In this document: one piece after another, positions 34,301 through 38,100 of the stretch
Position numbering within the stretch: the stretch's first letter is position 1
Layout of the letters: the number at the start of each line of letters is the position of its first letter
NCBI RefSeq assembly: GCF_963676685.1
Contig: NC_092352.1
Location: 42,904,001-42,968,000, forward strand
Origin: Mytilus edulis
Taxonomy: Eukaryota
Length of the DNA stretch: 64,000 bases
Direction of reading: 5' to 3'
Made by a program: the position numbers and the translations under genes
Notes under the pieces: generated by a model
The model's input: the letters and a program-made list of their open reading frames with translations, nothing else
Told to the model about the DNA's origin: nothing
Databases searched by the model: none

Positions 34301-35068
34301 ATTTTTATAATATCCGCCAAGGGAGTTTTCAAAAACACAATAGTTTTAGACCCATGACGGAAAAGGACTGGATTATCCGCAAATTTGATAGAATTTATAT
34401 TTTCAATCTTAAACTAAATGAAGTAAATTGATCAAAAGGGCCAAAGTCACGTGGTGCAAATCTTATGAATAATGTACCCTTCATTTTGCCATATGAAAGC
34501 ATTCAGACGGCTTATTGTTAAAGGTAGTAGTCCACTACGGTGACATGTAGTTAATTGTTAACTTCTACGTCATTTGGTGTACTTTAGAGAGTTGATATAA
34601 TTGACACTTATCTAGTTCTTATCTTGATAAATATACAGATTATTCGTACAACAGTGGTGTGCATTATATTTTCTTATTACCCCTAATTAAGAAACATAAT
34701 CTTAAGTATAGATTTTACGTGCTTGTTATTTATCTGCTTATATTTATCTACGTTTGTTTATGTTTATAACGATGTCACATGCCAGTCGGTGATTCTTGTC
34801 ATTCGGCAACTATTCTAAATAGCTTTTAGTCAATTCGGCTGGTAGAGCCCGTTTATAAATCATCAAAGCCAATAAGCAATGTAAACGAAAGTATATAATA
34901 CATATATACCTGGTTTTTGTCTGGGTGTATTCTTTTCGAGATGGCTCTATACGCCGACTTAATTTCACGTTTACTAGCTGTTCTGGTTATTCCCAATACC
35001 TTGAAATAATTTTCTTCTCCGTGACATTTTACCAGTAGTAAGAATAGAACAATTGTGAACATAAACAT
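28369..35068 (-). CDS. Signal peptide + J-domain (DnaJ/Hsp40) + C-terminal TM protein, 181 aa; exons 35068-34910 and 28755-28369
   Basis: [81 protein letters not shown]...; intact HPD; phase-0 intron CAG|GTATAT...TTCTATTCAG joins the two halves of the J domain; C-terminal hydrophobic [14 protein letters not shown]. Confidence 0.9.
29173..29300 (-). repeat. Degenerate hammerhead/retrozyme-like relic
   Basis: Minus strand GCGTCA-GTGATGA-TTCT-TTTGT-AGAC-GAAA-TGCACGCCTGACGCA; same layout as 1427-1470 but with core and stem II mutations. Confidence 0.45.
29525..29978. mobile_element. ~450-bp fully palindromic MITE with TA-flanked ends
   Basis: ATATAGAATGAAATTCAAAACAGTGTGGCTGTGGCCATTGATTGACAC and its exact reverse complement at 29931-29978; arms about 220 bp. 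Confidence 0.9.
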
Positions 35069-35158
35069 TGTGTCTGTCAATCATTGAGGTTAAAATATAT
35101 TCTTCCAAATTTTCAAGTGTGTGTTCATTATGAATTAGACGTAATTAAAGATCATTGA

Positions 35159-35195
35159 TTTATAAAGGTAATGTTGGAGAAACGAAAGTGAAACT
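35159..35195 (-). promoter_or_regulatory. TATA box (35159-35165) and tandem ISRE/IRF-E (35179-35195) upstream of the J-domain gene
   Basis: Gene-strand AGTTTCACTTTCGTTTC matches the ISRE consensus AGTTTCNNTTTC with a third GAAA core; TATAAAT follows 13 bp downstream; the ATG is about 90 bp further on. Confidence 0.7.
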
Positions 35196-38100
35196 AAAAT
35201 ATCTATGTAAACCTTAAATCCAAATATATCAGTAATTGATTAAATCTGTTTCATCTTTGTTATGCAGGATGACAATCATGTGTGTCCTCTGAGAACTGGT
35301 TAAATCGAGTTTTGGTTCAATAAATAAAAACGGAAAATGCCTTCGTGTAACCCGTTTGGTATTGAATTTCCCCTCCAAACCGAGAACTTATATAAGATTC
35401 ACCATGAAAAAAAATAAACTGCTGTTTGATAACCGTTTCTGTTCTGGATTTTAACATGTATATATGTGTACATTGCAAAATAGAGTAGTTTGTCTGTTGC
35501 GAAGAACCTTCTTTTGCAAGTTCTTATTGTAAAAAAGATTTTGTCATTATATTGATTATGACATTATGCTATTAATAAAACAACCCAATTCTAAATTTAA
35601 CGTTTAAACCCAATAGTTATCAGTGCATTTCCGAAATGTCGTATTAATAAGTTCGATGAAATTCAATAAGCTGACTTATTTTTTATATATCACGATATCT
35701 TGTTTAACAATCCCCAAGCAGAGTAAATGAGGAAAAAGACATCAAAACTGCTAAGATGACCCTTTGTCGAAAATAAAAGACACTTATTCAAATAAGTCAT
35801 AATTGAACACAATTGCCACTTTTTAATTAAAGCGTATTCTTACTTTCGAAATTTGTGAGTCTTTTGTTTATTAAATCAAAAATTCTGTAATTTATCCTTG
35901 GAGAACTTAGTTGGTTGTTATATGTAGCTTTGATGCTTTGGCTAGCTTTCAGAAACTTTAAGATCGATATTCTCTGTTCTCTTTCGTTTGTTAATGAATT
36001 TTTGTGCTTATTGCCTACCTAAATTAGTAGTAACTATCCTTGTTTAGCAAACTGTTAATATATCAGGCTGTTGTTTCTTCATTTCAACTATGTCACATTT
36101 TTTTCTCTTTTTATTTGGTACATGTTTACTAGGTTTTGCAACTTGTCAAATACCGTCATTTGACCTGTATAGTTTTTATCATTTTTGTCCCTTATCTTTG
36201 GGTCGAACTTGAGAGGTTTAGCGCTATAAAACCAGGTTCAATCCGCCATTTTCTACATTTTTAATTGCATTTGCCAAGACAGGAATATGACTGTTGTTGT
36301 CCATTCGTTTGATATGTTTTATGCTTTAATTTTGCCATTTAACACTGGACACTTTAAATTTGCAAAACACTCATTTGCAAATCCGCCGCCGCCTCAAATA
36401 AGAGGTACAGTGTCATGTATATAACCAAAATGTGCGGAAATACATGGGATTCAATAATTTCATTGAGTTTCTACTGTTACTATTATATTTATTTTGCTAT
36501 TTGATTTATAAAAACATGGGATTTTCAATATCCCATGGGACAGGGCAAAATCCGATGGGATCGACAAAATCCCATGGTATTTTGGTAAAATCCCATGGGA
36601 TAATTGTAGTCCCATGGGATATTTTTTGTTTTTGGTTGTAAATTTTTATAAGATGAATCTTTTTAATTGAATATCTTTTTTTCTTTGGAAATGTTAATTC
36701 AACATATTGTTCTATAACTGTTCAAAACTTCACTTTTAAACAACAAAGCAGATAATGTAAGTATCAACATATGTTTATTTATGAATTATAGAATACTTTT
36801 TCGAAACACAATTATTTTCCATTTGAAATCTTTGAAAACTCTATTATTAGGCTTAACATACTAGTAGCTGTTTAAGTAAAAGTATTTTTTCACAATATCC
36901 CTCCACTAAAAACAATAATAGTTTCTTATCATCAAGCATTGTGTGATTGTATAGTCCACTTTTTGGTCATTCAGCACATAACATTGATATTATTGTGGTT
37001 TCAATATCTGTTGGTATTTAAAAGAAGTCCAAATCATTGACTGAGTGATGAAAATAATAACTGATCCAACTTTTGTCTTTGAATTTATTCTGGTCTTGTT
37101 TCTAAAATGTTCTATGTTTTCTCCATGTATTCTAGGTGATGAATTTCAATCCTTCTGAAAAAGAACCAATAAAAATAGCTATTCGGTATGGATTTAACTG
37201 ATTGCTAAAGGTTGTCTGTTTACTTTAATTTTTTTTATTTAGGGACATCGCCACATGCACCTGTTTCTATCAACGGGAAGGTCGACTATCAATATGTAAT
37301 ATATATGGATAGTCGACCTTCCCATTGATAGATCAAAACAAGTACCTGTGCACATCTCTCCTCGGTCCTTCTTCTTTTAAGCTTATTATTTAGGGAAAGA
37401 AAGACAATTATTCTATACACATTAGCCGTTTTAGCTATACAAAACTGTTGGAAATGTAGGTTATACGTTAATAAGACAGCAACCAAATGACAAAGACAAA
37501 CTAAGGACATCCAGAAGGCAACATAGTATAGTATAGTTTTCAACAATATAGATAGATGTCTATGTTTCAGACCATATGAGTATTTGTACCGTACGCGTAC
37601 TTTTTCAAAATACACGACATACGTCTGACTGTTCGCGTACGGTCTGTCAGATTTAAAGAAGTTGGTCAAGTTTTAATACAAATAAATATATTACAGATCA
37701 ACATGACATAAATTTCGAATTGATATAAAAAGTTCAATTGTAATTGGAATAAAAACTTATTGTTTTGACTATTTTAATAGGTCGCGTTAATTTAATCTGG
37801 TAAGCTCCTGTATTTAGCATGAAATTCAATATTGCTCACTGAATTGAAGCCGACAAAATGTGGGTGAAAAGTTTCTAGAAAATTTAGGATTTTTTACTAG
37901 AAAAAAACGTCAAAACAGCTGTTTCCTTGTGAGACAACAGATCAATTTCTAGTTTTAATATAAAAATAAAATTTGATATAAACGATACAAAAACATTTAA
38001 TCGCTATTCTCCAAATAATGTAACAATTTAGGAAATAAAGGAAAAAGCCTAAATGTAAAAAAAGTTAAAAATTGGAAATTACCAATTTTTAACTATATAC

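Follow-up and report, generated by a model that had tools for sequence, protein, structure and literature searches.

A tandem IRF-type element beside the TATA box of a Mytilus edulis J-domain membrane-protein gene, a candidate IRF target

The J-domain gene and its relatives

The window analyzed here is a stretch of 64,000 nucleotides (64 kb) from Mytilus edulis, and all coordinates refer to positions within it. A preliminary description of this DNA had placed a tandem ISRE-like element upstream of a J-domain gene. The gene is real: five exons on the minus strand, joined at GT-AG junctions, give a translation identical to RefSeq XP_071130056.1 (Mytilus edulis, 325 aa). Its coding exons are as follows.

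34910..35068, minus strand: coding exon 1, signal peptide and first half of the J-domain with HPD
28461..28755, minus strand: coding exon 2, rest of the J-domain and linker, with a 21-nt tandem repeat at 28509-28567
27281..27344, minus strand: coding exon 3, start of the hydrophobic region
25052..25148, minus strand: coding exon 4, membrane segment
22680..23042, minus strand: coding exon 5, membrane segments and stop codon

The sole Pfam match of the protein at E up to 10 is the J-domain (PF00226, residues 20-81, E 5.5e-19). This domain is complete and carries the HPD motif, and neither a DnaJ zinc-finger nor a DnaJ C-terminal domain is present, as in class C J-domain proteins. An apparent signal peptide, judged by eye, opens the protein, and both hydropathy peaks and a structure model point to about four to five hydrophobic membrane helices after the linker. 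AlphaFold models the J fold with confidence and the remainder poorly (mean pLDDT 57 and 47.5 for two models). When one of these models was used in a Foldseek search, J-domains led the matches, and no match reached E 0.001. Across the three close sequences, which come from two species, the J-domain does not vary. We had also considered XP_071130081 as a paralogue within the window and rejected it, as it contributes just its last exon to the window, within a MULE-like element, while its exon 1 lies outside.

Relatives were sought by a HMMER scan of 1.84 billion representatives and by a four-sequence profile search in which the best 8000 candidates were scored. Similarity beyond the J-domain was found only in Mytilus edulis, galloprovincialis, trossulus and coruscus, in two Saccostrea species and in some other contigs. 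Single-sequence searches with the membrane region matched only 2 M. edulis records, and Atlas searches yielded nothing beyond generic DnaJ leads. On shared contigs the locus and accession numbers run consecutively, which indicates that the family forms a tandem cluster. Its members appear to be fast-diverging tandem paralogues, a pattern that is common among immune genes and not specific to them. We also searched the literature, covering few of the subscription journals in which much of mollusc immunology is published. Within that scope we found neither the gene, the family nor a J-NEMP fusion described, no paper that names any of six identifiers of the family, and, for the gene and its relatives, no data on expression, binding or function. 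The family, with its J-domain and multiple transmembrane segments, is undescribed in the literature searched and is the more original part of our finding.

The preliminary description took the product for an ordinary ER J-protein, a premise that gave way to a bivalve-restricted family with a J-domain, several membrane segments and a link to NEMP. The ER-lumenal J-proteins DNAJB9/ERdj4, DNAJB11, DNAJC10, DNAJC1 and SEC63 likewise pair a lumenal HPD J-domain with a signal peptide or a membrane anchor, and by analogy with them the window protein is likely to be a BiP co-chaperone. Unlike these proteins, it has no G/F, thioredoxin, SANT or Sec63 Pfam domain, it places the J-domain first with several membrane helices behind it, and its relatives were found only in bivalves. 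Because similarity outside the family is confined to the J-domain, one J-kinase fusion entry excepted, the window protein is not an orthologue of a classical ERdj. The gene differs from UPR-driven ERdj genes in its upstream DNA as well as in the architecture beyond the J-domain: a scan with consensus patterns found no ERSE, ERSE-II, UPRE or HSE in the proximal 600 nt.

PMC4422613 describes NEMP1 as a protein of the inner nuclear membrane that has a signal peptide, a membrane region A and a nucleoplasmic region B, which binds RanGTP and BAF. The window protein resembles NEMP/TMEM194 proteins in having a signal peptide (by eye), a predicted lumenal N-terminal part and a multi-pass membrane region. 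In two Saccostrea relatives the C-terminal third of the NEMP Pfam family PF10225 is matched above its cut-off of 28.7 bits, with scores of 40.2 and 34.2 bits. The Saccostrea membrane region is in turn homologous to that of the window protein (Smith-Waterman score 126; shuffle mean 49, maximum 95 of 1000). Because the Saccostrea proteins combine these two features, the family may be a J-domain/NEMP fusion. In contrast, neither a NEMP match nor a nucleoplasmic tail is present in the window protein or in the further Mytilus members that were scanned; PF10225 matched none of the 8 membrane parts scanned (E up to 10) and had no match in exon 5 alone, and Atlas features gave no usable NEMP match. 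Region B is present in both Saccostrea relatives and in none of the six non-oyster members scanned, and the window protein lacks it. NEMPs are also described, in the same source (PMC4422613), as having no known domains, whereas the window protein has its J-domain. Gene models at the locus are chimera-prone, two of them terminating in transposon ORFs that lie in the window, and this counts against a NEMP link. We consider the link to NEMP somewhat probable for the family and do not file the window protein itself as a NEMP.

The IRF-type element and the probable core promoter

Upstream of exon 1 the window contains the following features.

35179..35199, plus strand: tandem IRF element (IRF-E/ISRE-type), from a motif scan with the half-site definition in PMC7819612
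35158..35164, minus strand: TATA box TATAAAT, separated from the element by 14 nt and lying 96 nt before the ATG
35132..35138, minus strand: initiator-like YYANWYY from a pattern scan, which puts a putative start near 35136, 28 nt downstream of the TATA box
35082..35084, minus strand: out-of-frame upstream ATG, homologous by alignment to the start codon of an upstream duplicate

IRFs recognize AANNGAAA half-sites, and vertebrate IRF1/2 IRF-E and ISRE promoters carry them in tandem at a 6-nt period (PMC7819612). A scan of the window located GAAACGAAAGTGAAACT at 35179-35195 on the plus strand. The J-domain gene is on the minus strand, so the element is antisense to it and reads in the classic AGTTTC orientation on the strand of the gene. 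Two perfect half-sites at 35180-35193 keep the 6-nt register, the perfect tandem site spans 16 nt, and a third half-site with one mismatch lies on the other side of the perfect pair at 35192-35199. The preliminary description was thus right to see a textbook tandem element upstream of the J-domain gene. It also counted three GAAA cores, which are literally there, but the first is 5 nt out of register and supplies only the AA of a half-site; the in-register triple GAAA array that this count implied, GAAANNGAAANNGAAA, has 0 matches in the window. Its estimate of about 110 bp from element to ATG agrees with the 111 nt measured (ATG at 35068, minus strand), while the gap to the TATA box, given as 13 bp, is 14 nt.

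Apart from this element, the 64 kb contains no strict IRF-E match, and no second copy of the element's segment occurs within the window. For GAAANNGAAASY we found 2 matches versus 1.0 expected, a number reached by 30 of 100 shuffles. Window-level enrichment of the IRF motif is nil and the count over 64 kb is unremarkable; what is unusual about the element is its position beside the TATA box. We measured the background for this arrangement by simulating 400,000 stretches of 300 nt under each model. The 12-mer occurred with a probability of 0.0054-0.0058 per 300 nt and the 16-mer with 0.0007-0.0008 (0.065-0.08%). When a TATAWAW 5-40 nt downstream was also required, the values fell to 2.3-3.1e-4 for the 12-mer and 3-4.5e-5 for the 16-mer, the 16-mer and the TATA-spacing rule having been chosen post hoc, after the site was known.

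Because the 12-mer with a TATA box would arise by chance in only ~0.02-0.03% of 300-nt stretches, a functional IRF site is the likeliest reading of the element. Across some tens of thousands of genes, this rate would give the 12-mer with a TATA box by chance in roughly 10-20 promoters. It is somewhat unlikely, in our estimate, that an A-rich motif came to stand beside the TATA box by accident and that the gene is not regulated by IRFs. About one 12-mer is expected per 64 kb and the site was picked after scanning many promoters and motifs, both of which favor such an accident; the site is nevertheless perfect over 16 nt, is joined by a further near-perfect half-site, and stands 14 nt from a TATA box that the duplicate described below supports.

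The remaining upstream signals are less distinctive. YYANWYY is degenerate and common: about 8 are expected in any 600 nt. Two kB-like sites with one mismatch (-304 and -273) and one GAS palindrome (-592) are near chance, with 0.66 and 0.49 expected per 600 nt, respectively, and were not counted as evidence. An AG 6 nt before the ATG is a possible splice acceptor. Rfam gave 0 matches in 20000-52000.

A broken duplicate of exon 1 and wear in the gene

A partial copy of exon 1 lies 14 kb upstream of the gene, together with promoter sequence.

49526..49590, minus strand: promoter of the duplicate, with a TATA-like block at 49562-49550 and a TCAGTT initiator-like site at 49531-49526
49387..49477, minus strand: duplicate of the 5' part of exon 1, 82% DNA identity
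42301..49386, no strand assigned: 7.1-kb insertion cutting the duplicate exon, a probable DNA transposon, with terminal inverted repeats identical at 12/13 positions and a target duplication of about 7 nt
42284..42300, minus strand: continuation of the duplicate after the insertion, 16/17 identical to exon 1 of the gene, beyond which the copy is lost

The 7.1-kb insertion contains long minus-strand ORFs without a significant Pfam match. In the promoter of the duplicate, 11 of the 13 nucleotides of the TATA block are kept, 79 nt before the homologous ATG versus 80 nt in the gene, and this retention of block and spacing supports the core-promoter assignment. Over the first 100 nt upstream, homology is modest: the local alignment score was reached by 7/500 shuffles and the global score by 5/478 real windows, the global shuffle test being weak (37/500); beyond 100 nt upstream, homology to the duplicate is absent. 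At 49590-49574, which aligns with the IRF element, 9/17 bases agree with it and both cores are broken, and a search allowing up to one mismatch found no IRF element in 600 nt of DNA upstream of the duplicate. Conservation of the motif in paralogous promoters, one of the checks suggested beforehand, therefore failed in the one promoter examined, that of the broken exon-1 duplicate. This lack of conservation favors a chance match. Because the duplicate copy is broken, however, loss of the element there is as possible as gain in the gene.

The translation of the duplicate matches the N-terminus of M. galloprovincialis RefSeq isoform X1 at 29/30 positions, joined in that model to the body of the window gene. 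Because isoform X1 begins in this way, M. galloprovincialis may use a promoter without the element. Its chimeric start could reflect a fusion in the genome, the use of another first exon or an error of mapping. A start of the M. edulis transcript at the upstream exon copy or at an unseen non-coding exon would agree with this model, and the AG before the ATG could then serve as acceptor. The upstream copy is, however, cut by the 7.1-kb insertion, inspection of the M. edulis window found no canonical splice that would yield the M. galloprovincialis chimera, and the TATA-to-ATG spacing is kept in both copies. We regard as very improbable both a start elsewhere and the related case in which the site serves another GAAAG-binding factor, such as Blimp-1.

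Comparison with family members points to wear in this copy of the gene. In exon 2, the linker falls short of the paralogous linkers by about 45-50 aa, and a cysteine that the other 7/8 aligned members retain is absent. The reading frame stops early, and the longer C-terminus known from M. trossulus persists out of frame after the stop.

22541..22615, minus strand: out-of-frame remnant of the longer C-terminus of M. trossulus XP_063447479, 54% over 28 aa, E 0.012

The model from a second M. edulis assembly, CAG2202767, has a frame-shifted stretch in exon 5. Together, the gene looks like a worn duplicate that has lost linker and C-terminal sequence. Identity to the M. edulis paralogue CAG2202766 is distributed unevenly: 51/53 residues of exon 1 are identical, including 16/17 of the signal peptide, as against 38/52 (73%) at the start of exon 2 and 15/47 (32%) over residues 106-152. 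This drop from a nearly identical exon 1 hints that promoter and exon 1 were exchanged between neighboring paralogues.

Such an exchange raises the prospect that the true IRF target is a neighboring full-length paralogue, from which promoter and exon 1 were copied onto a decaying gene that is induced with little function. The uneven identity to CAG2202766 would be accounted for, an older exon-1 copy broken by an insertion does lie upstream, and the linker deletion, the lost cysteine, the C-terminal truncation and the exon 5 frameshift of CAG2202767 all fit decay. We nevertheless judge this reading distinctly unlikely. The J-domain remains identical across the two species and the reading frame is open over five exons; high constraint on the J-domain accounts for part of the exon 1 identity, and the promoter of CAG2202766 lies outside the window. 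The proposal that the product is an immune effector found no support: the literature searched yielded nothing on expression, binding or function, the element is missing from the sole available paralogous promoter, and the gene copy shows signs of decay.

IRFs in invertebrates and a proposed mechanism

Oyster IRF2- and IRF8-like proteins are induced by poly(I:C) and activate ISRE reporters (PMC5557890; review PMC5869526), so the earlier statement that bivalves have IRFs and a poly(I:C) response stands for oyster. The same two sources give three IRF2-like genes and one IRF8-like gene, with no IRF9 among the four, and recognize neither IRF3/7 nor an interferon homologue in oyster. The label "ISGF3-type" finds no support in this oyster repertoire; direct binding by an IRF1/2- or IRF8-like factor appears to be the only plausible route, because IRF3/7, interferon and IRF9 are not recognized there. 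Oyster and scallop IRFs are reported to bind ISRE (introduction of PMC13524488), and shrimp IRF binds a native ISRE at Vago4 (PMC4602278). In Nematostella, knocking down individual IRFs had no measurable effect, and cGAMP-induced genes were not reduced (PMC8713801). PMC6723221 and PMC13319465 provided general background only.

Shrimp Vago4 (PMC4602278) and oyster CgIFNLP (cited in PMC13524488) are the closest parallels, each with an ISRE-type site near the start and an IRF acting without vertebrate interferon. They differ from the mussel gene in having been tested by EMSA and/or reporter and in encoding secreted cytokine-like products, whereas the mussel gene, a candidate target, encodes a membrane J-protein. 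In an oyster poly(I:C) study (PMC7064767), 1,587 of 4,577 regulated genes are annotated, and three rows are DnaJ, all labelled as other subfamilies. Supplements 3 and 5 of its 5 were searched by term, and Table S3, which may hold identifiers only and may be truncated, gave no name matches. As no C. gigas orthologue was identified, this table is uninformative on induction of the mussel gene.

We put about even weight on the element being a working IRF-binding site in the TATA promoter of the M. edulis J-domain membrane-protein gene. The perfect site beside a TATA box, the core promoter shared with the duplicate, the lack of UPR and heat-shock patterns, the activity of oyster and scallop IRFs and the tandem, fast-diverging family speak for it; the duplicate promoter without the element, the N-terminus of the M. 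galloprovincialis model, the nil enrichment over the window, the wear in the gene and the Nematostella knockdowns speak against it. Under this mechanism, a mussel IRF1/2-like or IRF8-like factor would bind the two in-register half-sites directly, without an ISGF3 complex. Once bound, it would raise transcription from the putative start near 35136, both at baseline and after sensing of dsRNA or virus. The product would be a signal-peptide protein anchored by about four to five membrane helices, its HPD J-domain facing the ER or perinuclear lumen and recruiting BiP there. The gene is a plausible candidate for induction by virus; we do not claim an antiviral role for the protein.

A broader scenario would have an IRF-inducible bivalve membrane family, derived from J-domain and NEMP parts, that recruits Hsp70 through its J-domain in the ER and perinuclear lumen, where viral glycoproteins or the nuclear egress of herpesviruses could be its targets. 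Mytilus tandem paralogues would swap an IRF-controlled promoter and signal-peptide exon, so that inducibility would differ between haplotypes or species. This scenario is highly speculative and we give it little credence.

Since invertebrate promoters under IRF control have been described before, the regulatory claim adds at best another example and leaves the picture of invertebrate IRFs reading ISRE-type sites unchanged. The gene is a reasonable new candidate IRF target, and if it is induced, it would bring a new kind of gene into the invertebrate antiviral programme: a lumenal Hsp70 co-chaperone with possible nuclear-envelope ancestry. Few native IRF-target promoters in molluscs are documented in the literature searched, where mostly mammalian ISRE reporters were tested. 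The perfect, TATA-adjacent native site offers a ready substrate for tests of mussel IRFs, and the duplicate without the site offers a natural control.

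Motifs and domain architecture of the J-proteins

Upstream (5') of the minus-strand J-domain gene, two kB-like sites, each with a single mismatch, and a GAS palindrome were identified at window positions 35332-35372 and 35652-35660, a frequency near that expected by chance. Intron 1 of this gene also holds a palindromic element of ~460 nt (29520-29983; 162-nt arms, 89%). Among the relatives of the encoded protein, Saccostrea P0037 and P0160 each combine a J-domain and the C-terminal region of NEMP, an inner nuclear membrane protein family, in a single chain, an architecture that was not found in literature searches.

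MULE fragments and a probable DNA transposon

The upstream duplicate of exon 1 is cut by a 7.1-kb insertion, the ends of which are short terminal inverted repeats. MULE transposase fragments are also present.

42301-49386, 7.1-kb insertion
46636-44798, minus, transposase-sized ORF (612 aa)
44702-44241, minus, transposase-sized ORF
44234-43815, minus, transposase-sized ORF
58001-59258, minus, MULE transposase fragment
52050-52403, minus, MULE transposase fragment

The minus-strand ORFs of the insertion, which also contains a 44-nt tandem array (47925-48157), had no significant Pfam match. For 58001-58753, Pfam returned a MULE match (E 1.1e-10). XP_071130081 and CAG2202765, both gene models from databases, join J-protein paralogues by splicing to the MULE transposase ORFs of the window and are probably annotation chimeras; the first exons of these paralogues lie outside the window.

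Other repeats and assembly

A large nested inverted repeat at 12560-14558 (arms of 238, 78, 122 and 156 nt, 85-92% complementary) is foldback- or MITE-like. At 40744-42027, a 592-nt exact duplicate flanks a 100-N gap on both sides, probably an assembly artefact. Tandem repeats with 169-nt units (63576-64000) and ~194-nt units (8327-8824) are satellite-like.
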